Shown in pieces: positions 1,936-33,073 of a DNA stretch of 64,000 bases. A model generated the notes under the pieces. The model worked only from the letters and a program-made list of their open reading frames with translations. It was not told the origin of the DNA and made no database searches. The DNA lies in NCBI GenBank assembly GCA_016188045.1, contig JACPIM010000004.1, forward strand, positions 8,493 through 72,492. Direction: 5' to 3'. This stretch comes from Candidatus Woesearchaeota archaeon (GTDB taxonomy: Archaea; Nanobdellota; Nanobdellia; SCGC-AAA011-G17; JACPIM01). The position numbers and the translations under genes are program-made. Position 1 is the first letter of the stretch. Each line of letters begins with the position of its first letter.

Positions 1936-3696
1936 ATGGTTTATACTAGAAGTAGACTAATCAAGGAATATCTTGATTTCTTTAAAAGCAAAAACCACAA
2001 GGAAATTCCAAATGTCTCTTTAATACCAGAAAACGACCCAACAGTTCTGTTTACAACCGCAGGAATGCATCCCTTAGTCCCATTCCTATTAGGTCAAAAA
2101 CACCCATTAGGAGAAAGGCTTTGCAATGTCCAAAAATGCATTAGAACACAAGATATAGAAGAAGTGGGAGACGAAGTTCACCACACTTTTTTTGAAATGC
2201 TTGGTAACTGGTCTTTAGGCGATTACTTTAAAAAAGAAGCCATAGAATACAGTTTTGAATTCTTAACAAAAGTTCTAAAAATTACAAAAGAAAAATTAGC
2301 AGTCACTTGTTTCTCAGGGGATAAAGATGCTCCAAAAGACACCGAATCAGAAAAAACCTGGCAGTCACTAGGAATTCCTAAAGAAAGAATTGCTTTTTTG
2401 CCAAAAGAAAATAACTGGTGGGGCCCAGCTGGAAAAACAGGCCCCTGTGGTCCAGATACTGAAATGTTTTATTGGAAATCAAATAAACCAGCTCCAAAAA
2501 AATTTGATCCTGATGATAAAGATTGGGTTGAGATATGGAATGATGTCTTAATGCAGTATGTTAAAGATGAAAAAGGAAATTATGTTGAAGCAAAGCAAAA
2601 AAACATTGATACAGGAATGGGTGTTGAAAGAACAATTGCAGTATTAAACAACTTAGAAGACAATTATTTAACAGATGCCTTCTTGCCTATAATAAAAAAG
2701 ATAGAAAAAATTTCTAATAAAAAATACAATAAAGATAAAGAAGAGACTAGAGCAATTAGAATAATTACAGACCATATTAAAGCCTCTGTAATGATCCTTG
2801 GAGAAGGGATAGAACCGAGCAATAAAGAGCAAGGATATGTTTTAAGAAGATTAATTAGACGAGCCATTCGATATGGAAAAGAGCTTGGAATTGAAAAAGG
2901 ATTTACTAAAAATATTGCAGAAAGTGTTTTAGAAATTTATGAAGACTATTTACATTTAAAGCAGAAGAAGGAATTTATTTTTAATGAATTGGAAAAAGAA
3001 GAGAAAAGATTTAAACAAACGTTAAACACAGGATTAAAGTATTTTGAAAAAATATCCAGAGATAAAAAAGAAATTCAAGGAAAAGAAGCATTTTTGCTTT
3101 ATCAATCATATGGTTTCCCATTAGAGATGATTTTAGAGTTGGCAAAAGAAAAGAAAATAAAAATTGACACAGAAGGCTTCAAAAAAGAATTTGAAAAACA
3201 CCAAAAATTATCTAGAACAGCAACAGAAGGCAAATTCAAATCAGGTCTAGCTGACAATTCAGAAGCAACTAAAAAACTGCATACAGCCACACATTTGTTG
3301 AACGAAGCATTAAGAATATCATTAAATAAGCCGGATTTAATTCAAAAAGGCTCTAATATTACACCAGAAAGATTAAGATTTGACTTCAATTTTGATAGAA
3401 AATTAACAAATGAAGAGATAAAAAAAGTTGAAGATCTTGTAAACAAGAAAATAAGAGAAAGTTTAGAAGTTAAAAGACAGGAAATGACCGTAGATGAAGC
3501 TAAAAAGTTAGGAGCACAAGGAGTTTTTGAACACAAATATGGAGAAAAAGTTTCTGTTTACATAATAAACAACTTTTCAAAAGAAATATGCACAGGACCG
3601 CATGTAAAAAACACCAAAGAAATAGGTAAATTCAAAATTATTAAAGAAGAAGCTGTTGCTGCCGGGATAAGAAGGATTAAGGCAGTGTTAGAATGA
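1936..3696 (+). CDS. alaS: alanine--tRNA ligase, short form (catalytic plus truncated editing region, no C-Ala domain)
   Basis: N-terminus matches class-II AlaRS: LFTTAGMHP, HHTFFEMLGNWSLGDYFK. HTATHLL (HxxxH editing motif) and C-terminal CTGPHV...GIRRIKAV are present; only 586 aa. Confidence 0.85.
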   Translation: MVYTRSRLIKEYLDFFKSKNHKEIPNVSLIPENDPTVLFTTAGMHPLVPFLLGQKHPLGERLCNVQKCIRTQDIEEVGDEVHHTFFEMLGNWSLGDYFKKEAIEYSFEFLTKVLKITKEKLAVTCFSGDKDAPKDTESEKTWQSLGIPKERIAFLPKENNWWGPAGKTGPCGPDTEMFYWKSNKPAPKKFDPDDKDWVEIWNDVLMQYVKDEKGNYVEAKQKNIDTGMGVERTIAVLNNLEDNYLTDAFLPIIKKIEKISNKKYNKDKEETRAIRIITDHIKASVMILGEGIEPSNKEQGYVLRRLIRRAIRYGKELGIEKGFTKNIAESVLEIYEDYLHLKQKKEFIFNELEKEEKRFKQTLNTGLKYFEKISRDKKEIQGKEAFLLYQSYGFPLEMILELAKEKKIKIDTEGFKKEFEKHQKLSRTATEGKFKSGLADNSEATKKLHTATHLLNEALRISLNKPDLIQKGSNITPERLRFDFNFDRKLTNEEIKKVEDLVNKKIRESLEVKRQEMTVDEAKKLGAQGVFEHKYGEKVSVYIINNFSKEICTGPHVKNTKEIGKFKIIKEEAVAAGIRRIKAVLE

Positions 3697-6489: not shown

Positions 6490-9400
6490 ATGACAACTAT
6501 CCAAAAGATTAAATTTCACGGTTTTAAGTCGTTTGCAAAACCACTGGAGATAGAGTTTGGAAATAGTTTTAATTGCATTATTGGACCAAATGGTAGTGGA
6601 AAGTCATTATCAGGTGATGCAACAGTATTAACAAGCAAGGGAAATGAAATATCAATTAAAAAACTAGTTGAATCAAAACTAAACAAAGCAGATAAAATAA
6701 AGAAGTTAGATGATGGGGTTTATTGTGAAAGTAAAAGACCAACAAAGATTATTTCTTTAAACCCCATTAGTATGAAAAATGAGGAGTATGCAATTTCAAG
6801 ATTTATAAAAAGAGAAGGAGAACCACACCTATACGAGATAAAGACAAGAACAGGCAAAAAAATTAAATGTACTGGCTGTCATCCAGTTATGATATTTAAA
6901 GAAGGAAAAGTTCAAAGCGTCTTAGTTCAAGAGCTTAAAAAGACAGACAGAATCGCAACCCCTAGAATAATATTCACAAATACTAATTCAGAATCAAAAA
7001 ATCTAGCTAGACTCCTAGGCTACATAATAGGAGATGGATATATAAATAAAAACAGAATAGAATTTGTTAATGCTGATAAAGAAATTTTGGAAGATTTTAT
7101 AGGACTAACACGAGAATTATTTAATCTTTCTCCAGAATATAATAAAGTTACTAATAATCTTACAAGACTAATCTACTGGAATAAGAAATTTGTTAATTTT
7201 ATAATTGCTTTAATTAAAAATAAAAAAGAGAAATATACGAGCCAATATAAATATATTCCTAATAGAATCCTAAAGCTGGGTTTAGATACAACATCCAATT
7301 TGTTGGCAGCTTTATATGACACAGATGGAACAGTATACAAAAATAATGATGTTATAGAATTCTGCTCTAAAAATGAAAAATTGGTAAATCAAATTCAAAG
7401 ATTACTGTTAAGATTTAATATAATCGCAAGAAAAAAAGAAAGAAGTTGTTGTGCTTCTAATACAATCAATAAAATAAAAAGAAAGTATTATTATTTATAC
7501 ATTGAGGGACATGAAAATATAATTAAATTCTACAAGAATATTCCACTAAGATGTAGACACAAAATAGAAAGATTAGAAAATAAATTAAAATCACCAAAAG
7601 TTTCAAATCCAAATATTGATGTTTTACCAAAAGAAACGAATGCATTAATAAAAAAAGCGATAAATTTACTAGGAATTAGTTATAAACCATTAAGAAAAGA
7701 ATATCCAAAAATAGCGGCATATATAGAAAATAGATGCAATCCAACAAGACCGGGCTTACATGAAATTATACCAATATTATCATCTAAATTATTACAAATT
7801 TACTCTTCTGGCTTATCTTTAAGGTACGACCAATTAGAATTAGTAAATGTAATGGATCAACTAGGATTATCAGGTAGACAAACAAGCAACGCATTAGGCT
7901 TAAGCCCACAAATAATAAGAAACCATTGGGCAACAGGAAATTTTCAGGCCAAAGCCGAAAATTTAGAAAATTTCTTCAATTTTATTCAACGCGCAATAAG
8001 TTCAAGACTAATAGAATTAAAGTCAATAATGAATAAGTTATATAATTTGGCAAATTCTGATATTTTTTGGGATGAAATAGTCTCTATCAAAAAAGTAAAG
8101 GGCGAAAAATTTGTTTATGATTTAACAATCCCCAATAATCACAATTTCATAGCAAACGGTATTTTTGTACATAATTCAAATATAGTTGATGGTTTAACTT
8201 TTGTATTGGGAAAAAGATCAGCTAAAGCCATGAGGGCAGAAAAAGCCTCTAATCTTATTTTCAATGGCGGAAAAAAAGGCTCAGCAATGAAAGAAGCGTC
8301 AGTATCAATTTATTTTACAAATAATAATAAGGAGTTTCCAATAGCCTCAGAAACAGTAAAAATAACAAGGATAGTTAAGCAATCCGGTCAATCAGATTAT
8401 AAAATAAATGACGAAAAAAGAACAAGAGAGCAGATTATTGATTTGATATCGAAAGCAGGCATTGATCCAGACGGCTTTAACATCTTGCTTCAGGGAGATG
8501 TAGTTTCTTTTACAGAAATGCGTTCTGATGAACGTAGACAAATAATAGAAGATGTAGCAGGAATTTCAGTTTATGAAGATAAAAAGCAGAAAGCACTATT
8601 AGAGTTAGAAAAAGTAGATCAAAAAATAAATGAAGCCAATTTGATTTTAAAAGAAAGAGATGCTCATTTAAGGAACTTAAAAAAGGAACGTGATCAGGCA
8701 TTAAAATTCAAAGAATTGGAGCAAAATATCAAAGAAAATAAAGCAACTTATCTTTACTTGCAAATAAAAGAAAAAAGCGAAAAAAAAGAAGAGGTTGTCT
8801 CTAGGATAAAAAAACACCAGCAGAATATTGATTCTCTAAATAAAGAAGTCCAAGAATTAAGAACAAAAATAGACCAAAAGAAATCAGAAGTAGACTCAAT
8901 AAATAAGAACATTGAAGAAAAATCAGAGATAGAACAAGTTAGCTTACAACAGAATATTGAAAAAATAAGGGAAGAAATTTTAAGAGACGAAACCAGATTG
9001 GAAAACTTAAAAACAGAGATTCAAAAAGTTAATCAAAGGTCATCGCAATTAAAAAAAGATGAACTGGAAATAGAAAGTAAGATTGGAGAGTTAAATAAAG
9101 AAAAAATAAATCTTGAAGAAAAACAAAAAACACTAAAAAGAGAAGAAGAAACAGTAAGAAAAAATATCCAAAATTACAAAAAAAAGCACAATATCCAGGA
9201 CTTCTCATTAATAGAGAAAATAGAAACAGAAATAGAACAGTTGCAAAACAGCATAATCTATTTAAAAGAGCAAAAATCTTCTTTGATTATAGAACAGGAT
9301 AGAAACAATCAAGAAGTAACTAAAGTTAAAGAATTAGTAGATAAGTTCTCCTCACCACAAGTCAAAAAGAAAAGAGAAGAACTGGAAAAAGTTGAAAAAG

Positions 9401-11493
9401 AACTGGACAATTTAATCAATAACTTAAACGTTACTATAACTCAAATAGATTCAAATAAAGAAAAATTAGAGCAATTTAAGCAAGAGCTTTCCTCTTTAAG
9501 AGGGAAAAAAATATCAATCACAGATTCCCTTTCTGGAAATCAATCAGTGAACTTAATCTTAAATTCAAAAATTAACGGCGTTTTTGGAACAATCGCTTCA
9601 TTAGGTAAAGTAAATGAAAAATATTCAACCGCATTAGAAGTAACAGCCGGTGGAAGAACAAATAGCGTTATAGTGGATAACGATACAACCGCCCAAAAAT
9701 GCATCCAGATATTAAAAGACAAAAAGGCAGGTATAGCTACCTTCTTGCCATTAAACAAAATCAGAGAGAGAATTCAGTTAAATGAATTAAATCAACTAAA
9801 GAACCTTTCAGGTGTAAAAGACATAGCGTTAAATCTTATTGAATATGATAAAAAATTTCATAATGCTTTTTCATATGTTTTCGGCTCAACTCTAGTAGTA
9901 GATGACATACCAACAGCAAGAAAAGTAGGCATAGGCAGAGTCAGAATGGTAACTTTAGAAGGAGATTTAGTAGAGCCTTCAGGAGCTATGATAGGGGGTT
10001 ATAGAAGAAAAATATCGGGGGTTTTTGAGCAAAAAGATATTAATTCGGACATTACAAAAAAAGAATCTGAAATAGAAATAATACTAAGAAAGATACAGGA
10101 GTTTAATAATAAAAAATTGTCTCAGGAAAAGATTTCAAATGAATTAAGAAATAAAAAATATAACTTAGAAGCAGAACTAATAAAGGCACAAAAGACTTCA
10201 GACATTAGCAATTTAAATGAATTAAAAAAATCATTCTCTGACCTAAATAACAATATAAAAGAATCCAATTTAAAGATAAAACAACTAACACAGGAAATTG
10301 AAAAGAATGAACGGGGATTGGATAAACTAAAATCGGAAAGGCAGAAACTACAAGTTAAACCAGATTCTAAAGATTCTTTGTCTTCATTAGAAAACATAGA
10401 AAAAGAGCTTCAAAACAGGATTTCATTAATATCTCGGATACAAACAGAAATAAAAAATATAGAAAACCAGATTTCCTCCATTCACAACCCGGAAAAATTA
10501 AAAATACAAGAGATTATAAAACAACATCAAAAAGAGCTTCAAGATTTTCAAAATGAAATTAACCAAATAGAACAAAAACTTAAATCTTCTCATCCTAATT
10601 TAAAAGAACAAGAGAAAAAAGAAAAACAATTTAGGGAAGACTACAAAAACCAGTTTATTAAAAGAAACAAGTTAACAGAAGAAATAAGAAACACAGAGTC
10701 AAAGATATCACAACACGATTTCAAAATTAAGGAAATTGAAAAACGCCTCAATGAAGTTTCACTAGATAATGCTAAGATTTCAGCAGAAATAGAAGCTATT
10801 GATTCTGAATTTGAAGAATTCAAAGGAACAAAAATAAGAAGAAACATTTCATTAGCAGACTTAAAGCTTGAGATAAGTGAGTTTGAAAAAATGCTAAAAT
10901 CCTTAGGAAATGTGAATTTAAGGGCTTTAGAAGTTTATGAAACAATAGAAAGAGAATATCATGAAATAGTAGAAAAAACAAACGGGTTACAAAATGAAAA
11001 AGAAGATGTTTTGACTATGATGGCAGAAATTGAAGGAAAGAAAAAGCACCTTTTCCTTAAAACTTATAAGCAAATATCTGAAAATTTCAAAAGAATTTTC
11101 TTATCATTATCAGCAAAAGGAGAAGCTTATTTAGATTTGGAAGACAAAGAAAATCCGCTACAAGCAGGCATAGATATTAAAGTAAAACTAGCCGGAACTA
11201 AGTTTTTAGACATTACTTCATTATCTGGAGGAGAAAAAACTTTGACAGCCATAGCACTAATATTTGCAATTCAAGAATATAAACCCGCTTCTTTCTATTT
11301 ATTAGACGAAGTAGATGCCGCTCTAGATAAAACAAACTCTCAATTATTGGCAAAACTAGTGGCAACTTATGCGAAACAATCCCAATGCATTATGATATCC
11401 CATAATGATTCAGTTATAACAGAAGCAGACCAAGTTTATGGGGTAACAATGCAGCAAAATGGTATTTCTAAAATAGTTTCCATGAAACTTTAA
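6490..11493 (+). CDS. smc: chromosome segregation ATPase SMC, interrupted by an intein at the Walker A motif
   Basis: N-terminal FxxFKSF and GPNGSGKS; very long coiled coils with a central hinge (GTIASLGKV...AGGR); C-terminal LSGGEKTLTAIALIFAIQ, YLLDEVDAALD and ISHN motifs. 1143 aa remain after intein removal. Confidence 0.9.
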   Translation: MTTIQKIKFHGFKSFAKPLEIEFGNSFNCIIGPNGSGKSLSGDATVLTSKGNEISIKKLVESKLNKADKIKKLDDGVYCESKRPTKIISLNPISMKNEEYAISRFIKREGEPHLYEIKTRTGKKIKCTGCHPVMIFKEGKVQSVLVQELKKTDRIATPRIIFTNTNSESKNLARLLGYIIGDGYINKNRIEFVNADKEILEDFIGLTRELFNLSPEYNKVTNNLTRLIYWNKKFVNFIIALIKNKKEKYTSQYKYIPNRILKLGLDTTSNLLAALYDTDGTVYKNNDVIEFCSKNEKLVNQIQRLLLRFNIIARKKERSCCASNTINKIKRKYYYLYIEGHENIIKFYKNIPLRCRHKIERLENKLKSPKVSNPNIDVLPKETNALIKKAINLLGISYKPLRKEYPKIAAYIENRCNPTRPGLHEIIPILSSKLLQIYSSGLSLRYDQLELVNVMDQLGLSGRQTSNALGLSPQIIRNHWATGNFQAKAENLENFFNFIQRAISSRLIELKSIMNKLYNLANSDIFWDEIVSIKKVKGEKFVYDLTIPNNHNFIANGIFVHNSNIVDGLTFVLGKRSAKAMRAEKASNLIFNGGKKGSAMKEASVSIYFTNNNKEFPIASETVKITRIVKQSGQSDYKINDEKRTREQIIDLISKAGIDPDGFNILLQGDVVSFTEMRSDERRQIIEDVAGISVYEDKKQKALLELEKVDQKINEANLILKERDAHLRNLKKERDQALKFKELEQNIKENKATYLYLQIKEKSEKKEEVVSRIKKHQQNIDSLNKEVQELRTKIDQKKSEVDSINKNIEEKSEIEQVSLQQNIEKIREEILRDETRLENLKTEIQKVNQRSSQLKKDELEIESKIGELNKEKINLEEKQKTLKREEETVRKNIQNYKKKHNIQDFSLIEKIETEIEQLQNSIIYLKEQKSSLIIEQDRNNQEVTKVKELVDKFSSPQVKKKREELEKVEKELDNLINNLNVTITQIDSNKEKLEQFKQELSSLRGKKISITDSLSGNQSVNLILNSKINGVFGTIASLGKVNEKYSTALEVTAGGRTNSVIVDNDTTAQKCIQILKDKKAGIATFLPLNKIRERIQLNELNQLKNLSGVKDIALNLIEYDKKFHNAFSYVFGSTLVVDDIPTARKVGIGRVRMVTLEGDLVEPSGAMIGGYRRKISGVFEQKDINSDITKKESEIEIILRKIQEFNNKKLSQEKISNELRNKKYNLEAELIKAQKTSDISNLNELKKSFSDLNNNIKESNLKIKQLTQEIEKNERGLDKLKSERQKLQVKPDSKDSLSSLENIEKELQNRISLISRIQTEIKNIENQISSIHNPEKLKIQEIIKQHQKELQDFQNEINQIEQKLKSSHPNLKEQEKKEKQFREDYKNQFIKRNKLTEEIRNTESKISQHDFKIKEIEKRLNEVSLDNAKISAEIEAIDSEFEEFKGTKIRRNISLADLKLEISEFEKMLKSLGNVNLRALEVYETIEREYHEIVEKTNGLQNEKEDVLTMMAEIEGKKKHLFLKTYKQISENFKRIFLSLSAKGEAYLDLEDKENPLQAGIDIKVKLAGTKFLDITSLSGGEKTLTAIALIFAIQEYKPASFYLLDEVDAALDKTNSQLLAKLVATYAKQSQCIMISHNDSVITEADQVYGVTMQQNGISKIVSMKL
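6604..8175 (+). mobile_element. intein (524 aa) with LAGLIDADG homing-endonuclease domain, inserted after GPNGSGK
   Basis: Starts S-LSGDATV (block A), ends VYDLTIP...FVHN followed by S (+1). Two LAGLIDADG-like blocks, LLGYIIGDGYI and LLAALYDTDGTV. Excision restores GPNGSGKSNIVDGLTFVLG. Confidence 0.8.
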
Positions 11494-28900: not shown

Positions 28901-28934
28901 TAAAACCACCTATTTTATAAAAAATACCATTCAC
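25914..28934 (-). CDS. FlaI/TadA-family secretion ATPase (T2SS-E) interrupted by an intein
   Basis: Walker A VGGTGTGKTS, Asp box IVSIEDTRELNL, RPDYVVVGEIRGAEAY, then the intein, then GHPSMGTMHAE (His box). 562 aa remain after intein removal. Confidence 0.85.
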   Translation of the reverse strand: MNGIFYKIGGFMLFRKKEAKTNSFANTKALTEKTIPEQKAQTEFKINLKQQIFELPTVKDKTKLNIRYPLIAPFAYAHIFWDEKRHELIYQVEEPILNSDEQRVLAILEKGIEELINISFIAIKSSEVIIKYLEENVKVLLNEYRIKVNKNTLLKLMYYIYRDFVGLNEIEPIMRDYFIEDIECNGVNSSVYIVHRKYRNIRTNVLYNDVSKLTSLVEKLAQKCGKYISYASPLLDGALPDGSRANATYTQDITSKGPTFTIRKFTVDPWSPVKLMQFRTVSPEVLAYLWLLIEYESNVLIVGGTGTGKTSFLNSIAFFVPPQARIVSIEDTRELNLLHENWLPSVAREGVGITSLVGTKQGEVTLFDLLKESFRQRPDYVVVGEIRGAEAYVLFQGMSSIRGDEKIMVLNDEHPKRISIKDMKKDIKYKVITYDELGNVKIMPVKFMIRHSGQKVLYEIITKKGRKITISKNHSLFNYDNGIIPIEAEKIKKGDRVLIPSKIPCGYCDFDEIDIMEYLSDIRVFAPDHVKEASHKLGYYKASKICGVCSITDYYSNFKRSKPSSLRAEKFVRLMKEAGLKYNKDDLIFKYDNRSKGFMGNLKLTPELLRLCGYYVSEGSLDDGENNSKIEFYNLNKEILDDMRHCIRKVTGSDAKERITYGFGKSIELSVNHRVLFEFLKRHFGKKENKHIPDFVFGLSKEKISALLSGLYTGDGSLTKDVGYYTISKELANDVAQLLLVYGIVARIGKRKRKGRKKIDYEVLFFSKWEKDVFLENVKIIGKRIIMKKIGKPKSSNYVNDLYLDIVLKINKKILKKPEPVYDLCVPGTQNFIGGFGGVLLHNSGHPSMGTMHAEDLHTMIRRLESPPINLSPTLVNSLDVVCIMANIKQEGKETRKVKKIIEIVKIGDKAGEETINEPFIWDPKSDKFYFKSHGKSYLKMDSRAFDKITTHYGISREKLMDEFRKRTLLLMRMYKAGITGFKEVHNVITAYYKTPDMILKKFGIS
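26406..27737 (-). mobile_element. intein (444 aa) with LAGLIDADG homing-endonuclease domain, between QGMS and SGHP
   Basis: Starts S-IRGDEKIMV, ends VYDLCVP...VLLHN followed by S. LAGLIDADG-like blocks LCGYYVSEGSL and LLSGLYTGDGSL. Confidence 0.75.
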
Positions 28935-32938: not shown

Positions 32939-33024
32939 ACTAATGAAAAGCCAGGGGTGAGACTTGAACTCACTATCTCCGCCTTTTTGTTTTAAATACC
33001 AAGGCGGTACATTGACCAGTTATG
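32939..33024 (-). tRNA. tRNA-Thr (anticodon GGU) with 12-nt canonical intron
   Basis: Hand fold: acceptor GCCGGGG, D-arm GCAT/ATGT, anticodon stem CCGCC/GGCGG with loop TTGGTA-[TTTAAAACAAAA]-A, T-arm GTGAG-TTCAAGT-CTCAC. Caveat: the 1:72 pair reads G:G. Confidence 0.5.
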
Positions 33025-33073
33025 CTACCCCGGCACAAAATCTGAAGAAATAATGCGATTAATAAAGATTATG

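Follow-up and report, generated by a model that had tools for sequence, protein, structure and literature searches.

The window analysed here is a stretch of 64,000 nucleotides from a Candidatus Woesearchaeota archaeon (contig JACPIM010000004.1 of assembly GCA_016188045.1), in which the gene for the SMC ATPase is interrupted by an in-frame insertion of 524 amino acids. This insertion is very probably a full-size class 1 intein that sits at the Lys|Ser bond of Walker A (GPNGSGK|S) in an archaeal SMC ATPase, is capable of self-splicing and is equipped with a homing LAGLIDADG endonuclease. Nothing was found that contradicts the assignment as an intein. Archaeal SMC inteins have been recorded before, and the case in the window is a clean textbook example that represents no new kind.

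The smc gene and its insertion point

The smc precursor gene occupies positions 6490..11493 of the window on the forward strand, where it forms a single uninterrupted open reading frame (ORF) of 1667 codons plus stop. Residues 32-38 of the precursor are GPNGSGK (6583..6603) and are the last residues of the N-extein (residues 1-38, 6490..6603, forward strand), which is colinear with residues 1-38 of the intein-free orthologues P0083 and P0084. Residue 39 is a Ser (TCA, nucleotide 6604) that opens the insert with SLSGDATVLT. The insert (6604..8175, forward strand) comprises exactly 1572 nucleotides or 524 codons in frame (codons 39-562), from Ser1 to His523-Asn524; precursor residue 562 is encoded by the AAT codon ending at nucleotide 8175 and the C-terminal end reads NHNFIANGIFVHN. 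After ...NGIFVHN, the C-extein (residues 563-1667, 8176..11493, forward strand) begins with SNIVDGLTFVLG, where Ser563 (8176..8178) is followed by NIVDGLTFVLG, so that the whole arrangement is GPNGSGK|S...VHN|SNIVDG. Ser563 is at once the +1 splicing nucleophile and the Ser of Walker A. No ORFs of at least 80 amino acids were found in other frames across the insert, and the GC content of the insert, 27.5%, is close to the 29.9% of the remaining gene.

The identity of the host is well defined. TIGR02169 (SMC_prok_A, an equivalog for archaeal-type SMC) matched the whole protein with 800 bits against a cut-off of 729. The match falls into two stretches, of which the larger covers residues 563-1667 and profile positions 37-1165, and the profile is therefore broken exactly at the position of the insert. 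SMC_N matched both ends of the protein, SMC_hinge was located at residues 1029-1146, and the C-terminal head carries LSGGEK and LLDEVDAALD; thus the profile match, both halves of the head and the hinge expected of an SMC protein are all present. Sequencing runs SRR12113420 and SRR12113430, which are independent of each other, both yielded contigs encoding the identical protein of 1667 amino acids, which excludes an assembly chimera or mis-assembly.

An earlier note, made from the letters of the window, had described a 524-residue in-frame element at 6604-8175 that starts with Ser after GPNGSGK and ends in VHN, and these limits were confirmed to the base. The note had also placed the insertion in the ATPase P-loop of a chromosome-organisation protein, which agrees with the GPNGSGK|S junction and with a host that passes TIGR02169. 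Its statement that excision regenerates a canonical SMC P-loop holds as well, since the spliced product computed in silico is an SMC of 1143 amino acids that runs colinear to intein-free orthologues of the same length and shows no indel against them.

Splicing, endonuclease and accessory domains

The insert was matched by Pfam Intein_splicing (PF14890) with 106 bits (E 2e-30, cut-off 35.8) over its residues 8-524, by NCBIfam intein_Nterm TIGR01445 with 53 bits (cut-off 24.5) over residues 2-97, and by intein_Cterm TIGR01443 with 36.3 bits (cut-off 15.6) over residues 503-524; these matches are far beyond chance. The N-terminal HINT splicing region (intein residues 1-125, 6604..6978, forward strand; an approximate boundary taken from the secondary structure of a model) holds block A with Ser1 and block B with T90-G-C-H93 (6871..6885), and is supported by TIGR01445 and by a phmmer alignment to 6rpq/6rpp. 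The C-terminal HINT region (residues 484-524, 8053..8175, forward strand) is supported by TIGR01443 and by a phmmer alignment to 6rpq over the same residues, and contains block F, VYDLTIPNNHNFIANG (residues 504-519, 8113..8160), followed by block G, IFVHN (residues 520-524, 8161..8175). The C-terminal junction reads VYDLTIPNNHNFIANGIFVHN|S, with a His-Asn end and Ser at +1. The catalytic set was found to be complete, consisting of Ser1, T90xxH93, block F, H523-N524 and Ser+1 for splicing together with Asp144 and Asp241 of the endonuclease. Block F has the Asp in YDL and no Cys of the WCT type, which, by the definition of the classes, sets the element apart from class 3 inteins. The in-frame insertion, blocks A and B, blocks F and G and the HINT fold are all those of a class 1 intein.

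Ser1 was observed to be invariant in the 11 homologues of the Ser1 type while position 2 is variable (L, V, T, C or S), and this fixes the boundary at K|S. We also considered a start at the Cys that follows the Ser in some homologues (GPNGSGKS|C...), which was rejected on three grounds: the second residue is Leu in the window intein and Val, Thr or Ser in others; inteins of the Cys1 type described below align their Cys to the position of the Ser; and an extra Ser would remain in the P-loop.

An AlphaFold2 model of the intein, built with 20 homologues, reached a mean predicted local distance difference test score (pLDDT) of 89.9 and a predicted template modelling score (pTM) of 0.88. The top Foldseek matches in the PDB were full-size archaeal inteins, namely TliVMA (7qss, E 1.7e-24), PI-PfuI (1dq3, E 2.1e-21) and PI-PkoII (2cw7, E 6.4e-19), with PhoVMA (7qst) and PI-SceI (1vde, 1lws) further down; over these the E values range from 1e-24 to 1e-8 with target-normalised template modelling (TM) scores of about 0.6-0.8. 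As in the window, the HINT domain of these solved inteins is split by a two-repeat LAGLIDADG endonuclease, and an additional DNA-binding module accompanies it, for which a putative helix-turn-helix (HTH) is the candidate in the window. Mini-inteins rank after the full-size ones (PhoCDC21-1, 6rpq, 1.3 A over 123 columns) and are followed by free-standing LAGLIDADG enzymes. The model superposes on the mini-inteins 6rpq/6rpp with 1.3-1.7 A over about 122 columns as well as on the full-size inteins, and by sequence (phmmer) the nearest solved splicing domains belong to two MCM mini-inteins, PhoCDC21-1 (E 2e-19) and PabCDC21-1 (E 6e-16).

The endonuclease domain covers intein residues ~126-335 (6979..7608, forward strand), as judged from PF14528, the model and Foldseek. 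LAGLIDADG_3 (PF14528) matched with 86 bits (E 2.1e-24) in two stretches that correspond to blocks C and E. Motif 1 is LLGYIIGDGY (residues 137-146, 7012..7041, forward strand) with the catalytic Asp144, and motif 2 is LLAALYDTDGT (residues 233-243, 7300..7332, forward strand) with the catalytic Asp241. In the model the alpha-beta-beta-alpha-beta-beta-alpha order occurs twice (H132-144/E/E/H/E/E/H and H227-240/E/E/H/E/E/H), and I-DmoI and I-Tsp061I were also among the Foldseek matches. The two acidic-ended helices and the pseudo-dimeric fold are those of a two-motif monomeric LAGLIDADG endonuclease, and the enzyme is probably functional. Both the full size and the pair of LAGLIDADG blocks proposed in the earlier note were thus recovered, the former as the fold match to solved full-size inteins and the latter as the two LAGLIDADG_3 stretches with Asp144 and Asp241. 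The note had made its reading depend on a formal profile search for blocks A, B, F and G, and this search detected A and B by TIGR01445 and F and G by TIGR01443, with C and E added by LAGLIDADG_3.

Between the endonuclease and the C-terminal HINT region lies an all-helical accessory domain (residues 336-483, 7609..8052, forward strand) with a putative XRE/cro-C1-like HTH inside. The segment in question is LGLSGRQTSNALGLSPQIIRNHW (residues 420-442, 7861..7929), and the domain probably extends the DNA contacts of the free intein. WhiA (3hyi) was also observed among the Foldseek matches of the intein model. A derivative of the Ser1 type with Thr1, found in an SMC of 1468 amino acids (P0099), has lost the whole LAGLIDADG core and kept a helical domain of ~150 residues with the HTH, which aligns to 7609..8052.

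Following established intein chemistry, splicing would begin with an N-O acyl shift at Ser1 of the intein and proceed by trans-esterification to Ser+1, the serine of Walker A itself. Asn524 would then cyclise with the assistance of His523, and an O-N shift would restore the peptide bond. The expected products are an SMC of 1143 amino acids, whose GPNGSGKS loop is intact, and the intein as a free protein of 524 amino acids. As the insert parts the Walker A lysine from Ser+1, the SMC head would bind no ATP and form no active ATPase before splicing. The free intein would cut intein-less smc alleles at the DNA coding for the P-loop (...GGTAAG|TCCAAT...; TGTATTATCGGCCCAAATGGTTCAGGTAAGTCCAATATAGTAGATGGCCTAACTTTTGTC is an example of a putative empty-site sequence) and would be copied into the cut allele via double-strand-break repair.

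Empty alleles, intein lineages and mobility

Orthologues were searched with the 1143-residue SMC spliced in silico, and the empty alleles that the earlier note had proposed to look for in relatives were found in syntenic loci. The P-loop is uninterrupted in P0083 (94% amino acid identity to the spliced SMC, 1143 amino acids, GPNGSGKSNIVDGL), P0084 (87%, 1143 amino acids) and P0086 (70%, 1144 amino acids), and both P0083 and P0084 read GK|SN at the exact junction (GPNGSGKSNIVDGL). Their contigs share with the window Methyltrn_RNA_2 and cupredoxin genes upstream and genes of 73, 158 and ~455 amino acids downstream. At the level of DNA, the empty junctions are GGTAAG|TCCAATATAG in loci L003, L004 and L005 and GGTAAG|TCAAATATAG in L006, and the junction of the window without the insert is GGAAAG|TCAAATATAG. 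The spliced gene of the window and the empty genes are all 3432 nucleotides long and align without gaps, with a nucleotide identity of 87.3% to L003 and 84.5% to L006; the spliced product is 93.5% identical in amino acids to that of the intein-free L003. The site is thus polymorphic at the level of the genus.

We noticed that Walker A Ser36 (within 6583..6603) is encoded by AGT in the window, whereas the empty alleles and L007 have TCA or TCT there. Such a swap between the two serine codon families, 7-9 nucleotides upstream of the insertion point, could reflect drift or target-site resistance.

The family was studied in 17 aligned SMC inteins and in 8 loci among GTDB species representatives, one of which (L010) is a short contig without the junctions. 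All 17 inteins and 7 of the 8 loci have the insertion at GxNGxGK|...HN|SN with open frames; apparent in-frame stops in L009, L012 and L014 proved to precede the start codons, which leaves the inteins of these loci intact. The genomes are Woesearchaeota and Nanoarchaeota metagenome-assembled genomes (MAGs) together with one labelled Methanosarcinales. When 1.84 billion cluster representatives (clusters at 50% identity) were searched exhaustively, at least 42 of the best 150 matches showed an SMC-type N-terminus leading directly into an intein, 13 with Ser1 and 29 with Cys1. An intein is present in 13 of the 120 nearest SMC orthologues.

Two intein lineages, Ser1 and Cys1, therefore share the Walker A Lys|Ser site of SMC in DPANN archaea. 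Inteins of the Cys1 type (P0089, P0096, P0113; 29 clusters) have the same insertion point as the window intein, homologous HINT blocks and a homologous first part of the accessory region (N.D..P/I...N...Y..N.C.P.R.GL). They differ from it in residue 1 (Cys instead of Ser), in block B (TKYHP instead of TGCHP), in the use of Glu as the first LAGLIDADG acid (LLAEG), in an additional insert of ~95 residues before the endonuclease and in the lack of the ~85-residue HTH segment after it; they are about 33-35% identical to the window intein. In P0089, by protein comparison only, the extein is 96% identical to that of the window yet holds a Cys1 intein of 543 amino acids at the identical Lys|Ser site, which implies that the two lineages alternate at one site among very close relatives. 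Mini-inteins without endonuclease derive from the Cys1 type in P0195 (179 amino acids) and P0142 (195 amino acids), and the corresponding derivative of the Ser1 type is the Thr1 intein of P0099 (332 amino acids). All states of the homing cycle were therefore observed at this site, from empty through full-size to endonuclease-less minis of 179-332 amino acids.

A comparison of intein and host trees, made by simple neighbour-joining of few sequences, points to mobility. The intein of P0136 is 72% identical to that of the window whereas the exteins share 49%; the extein of P0136 groups with that of P0134 (53%), yet the inteins of these two share only 50% identity. Similarly, the sister exteins P0098 (Ser1 type) and P0096 (Cys1 type) hold different intein types. 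As the intein and host trees disagree, the element appears to have moved or been replaced between SMC lineages, and the sequences thus indicate transfer and replacement between lineages.

Inteins are also found in the P-loops of other ATPases, as in MCM/CDC21-1 (6rpq, 6rpp), RFC small subunit site a, DnaB site b, aIF2 and HerA/DUF87-like proteins. The host in the window has an SMC/ABC-type ATPase head, whereas the other hosts have an AAA+, RecA-like or GTPase fold, and residue 1 of the window intein is Ser and not Cys as in the other P-loop inteins. NCBIfam alignments to the intein-bearing RFC and IF-2 models were observed to begin ~10 residues before the intein, with the P-loop included. The nearest relatives outside SMC are in HerA/DUF87-like ATPases of ~870 amino acids (P0011, P0014, P0024 and P0019), where the intein (GKRGSGK|C...HN|SY) likewise splits Lys|Ser of Walker A, here in an unrelated ATPase, and the start of the accessory region (N.N.D.(I/L)PKE...) is shared with the window intein. 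These sequences suggest movement between P-loop sites that have the GSGKS peptide in common. Clustering of inteins in P-loops is stated by Novikova et al. (2016, PMC4760082), whose survey also states that the archaeal SMC ATPase contains inteins. The phrase "SMC intein" was not found in the literature searched. Some of the proteins already bear a name at NCBI, either "chromosome segregation protein SMC" or "LAGLIDADG family homing endonuclease".

Selection was examined against L007 (GCA_964432435.1), which carries the same intein of 524 amino acids and is 79% identical to the window in both intein and extein. The ratio of non-synonymous to synonymous substitution rates (dN/dS) was 0.08 in the N-terminal HINT region, 0.11 in the endonuclease, 0.17 in the accessory domain, 0.07 in the C-terminal HINT region and 0.07 in the C-extein, values which are rough since dS is saturated, being above 1 in most regions (the accessory domain and the C-terminal HINT region have 0.69-0.85). 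No domain of the intein approaches neutrality, which suggests that the endonuclease is maintained and not merely tolerated. The host gene showed a dN/dS of 0.04 against L003, and such strong constraint implies that the insert must be removed for SMC to work. Recent transfer was also assessed from synonymous sites. The fraction of identical codons at conserved residues between the window and L007 was 0.658 in the intein (confidence interval 0.609-0.701) versus 0.576 in the extein (0.546-0.610); this signal is marginal and confounded by the lower GC content at third codon positions in the intein (0.187 versus 0.234), and recent transfer was not accepted on this basis.

Alternative readings and wider context

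Several points qualify the reading as a self-splicing intein with an actively homing endonuclease. Both splicing and DNA cleavage are predicted from the letters of the gene, the trees rest on few sequences and the dN/dS values are rough, as said above. Vertical descent is compatible with the pair formed by the window and L007 as well as transfer is. In addition, the empty alleles come from related species and not from the same population, which makes ongoing homing in this population a prediction, and no co-conversion tract was visible at the junction, where the sliding-window nucleotide identity is 0.84 in the first 120 nucleotides versus 0.87 over the whole gene.

Some of these points lend weight to an alternative in which splicing is intact and the endonuclease is inactive. 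The intein would then be fixed, vertically inherited and late in its homing cycle, kept only since imprecise loss would destroy the P-loop. The equal identity of 79% in intein and extein against L007 is what co-descent predicts, neither an empty allele in the same population nor a co-conversion tract was found, and P0099, P0142 and P0195 show that decay occurs at this site. However, in the window the two catalytic Asp residues are intact, as are the two LAGLIDADG helices, the endonuclease domain is modelled with high confidence, its dN/dS of 0.11 is not near 1, and the intein and extein trees are incongruent. We consider this alternative unlikely, while giving it appreciable weight beside an active homing intein.

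The intein might instead be domesticated: conditional splicing might gate the maturation of the SMC ATPase, a case that has been made for P-loop inteins at large, or the free intein might have a second DNA-binding role via its HTH, as WhiA combines LAGLIDADG with HTH. The disabling of the P-loop until splicing, as read directly from the sequence, the match to WhiA 3hyi, the retention of the HTH-bearing accessory domain in P0099 despite the deleted endonuclease core, and the argument made in Novikova et al. (PMC4760082) that clustering in P-loops suggests a benefit to the host all fit such a role. Against this, the close relatives P0083, P0084 and P0086 do without the intein, and among the nearest 120 SMCs only about 13 have one; the distribution is as sporadic as that of a selfish element, and Ser1 with Ser+1 gives no redox switch. 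Domestication of the window intein therefore seems very unlikely. It is just as doubtful that a part of the intein family has been domesticated, with the HTH domain giving the excised intein or the P0099 host a DNA-binding or regulatory role, or with splicing at Lys|Ser acting as a conditional switch for SMC loading. A non-functional insert, whether it comes from faulty assembly, sits in an smc pseudogene or persists as a domain that is never removed, found no support and was considered only since metagenomic contigs can be chimeric. It is barely credible given the identical protein on contigs of two runs, a frame open over 5 kb, the same architecture in many MAGs, the strong purifying selection on the extein, and an insertion of 524 residues that parts the Walker A Lys from its Ser, which the established structure of the P-loop makes incompatible with nucleotide binding.

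The SMC case leaves the current understanding of inteins unchanged and adds a well-documented SMC site to the P-loop insertion points. The family lends itself to study, as empty, Ser1 full-size, Cys1 full-size and mini alleles all occur at one site, and the two lineages at one site in 96% identical exteins form a natural case in DPANN archaea for studying how homing elements compete. Of modest interest are this coexistence of Ser1 and Cys1 inteins in near-identical hosts, the accessory domain and the cysteine-free splice junctions; a mesophilic intein with such junctions (Ser1/Ser+1) could interest protein engineers. Furthermore, the label "LAGLIDADG family homing endonuclease" assigned by gene callers and annotators masks an orthologue of SMC in reduced genomes.

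A hidden Markov model built from the SMC inteins was run against all six-frame ORFs of at least 80 amino acids in the window and found only the SMC intein and one other. This second full-size intein of 444 amino acids (26406..27737, reverse strand) has Ser1/Ser+1 and LAGLIDADG motifs, and scored 70 bits with Intein_splicing and 63 bits with LAGLIDADG_3. Its host gene (25914..28934, reverse strand) encodes a type II/IV secretion (T2SSE, VirB11/FlaI-like) ATPase, which matched Pfam T2SSE with 78 bits. The junctions, ...LFQGMS|SIRGDEK...GGVLLHN|SGHPSMGT, are near a conserved GH motif and not at the P-loop, and the identity to the SMC intein is only about 29% in the endonuclease core.

Two further features of the window were noticed. 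An alanyl-tRNA synthetase-like gene (1936..3696, forward strand) encodes 586 amino acids, compared with 584 in L003 and 706 in the more distant L007 (3850..5970). A tRNA at 32949..33034 (reverse strand) was matched by Rfam with 52 bits and was unreported by ARAGORN; its span of 86 nucleotides suggests an intron-containing archaeal tRNA.

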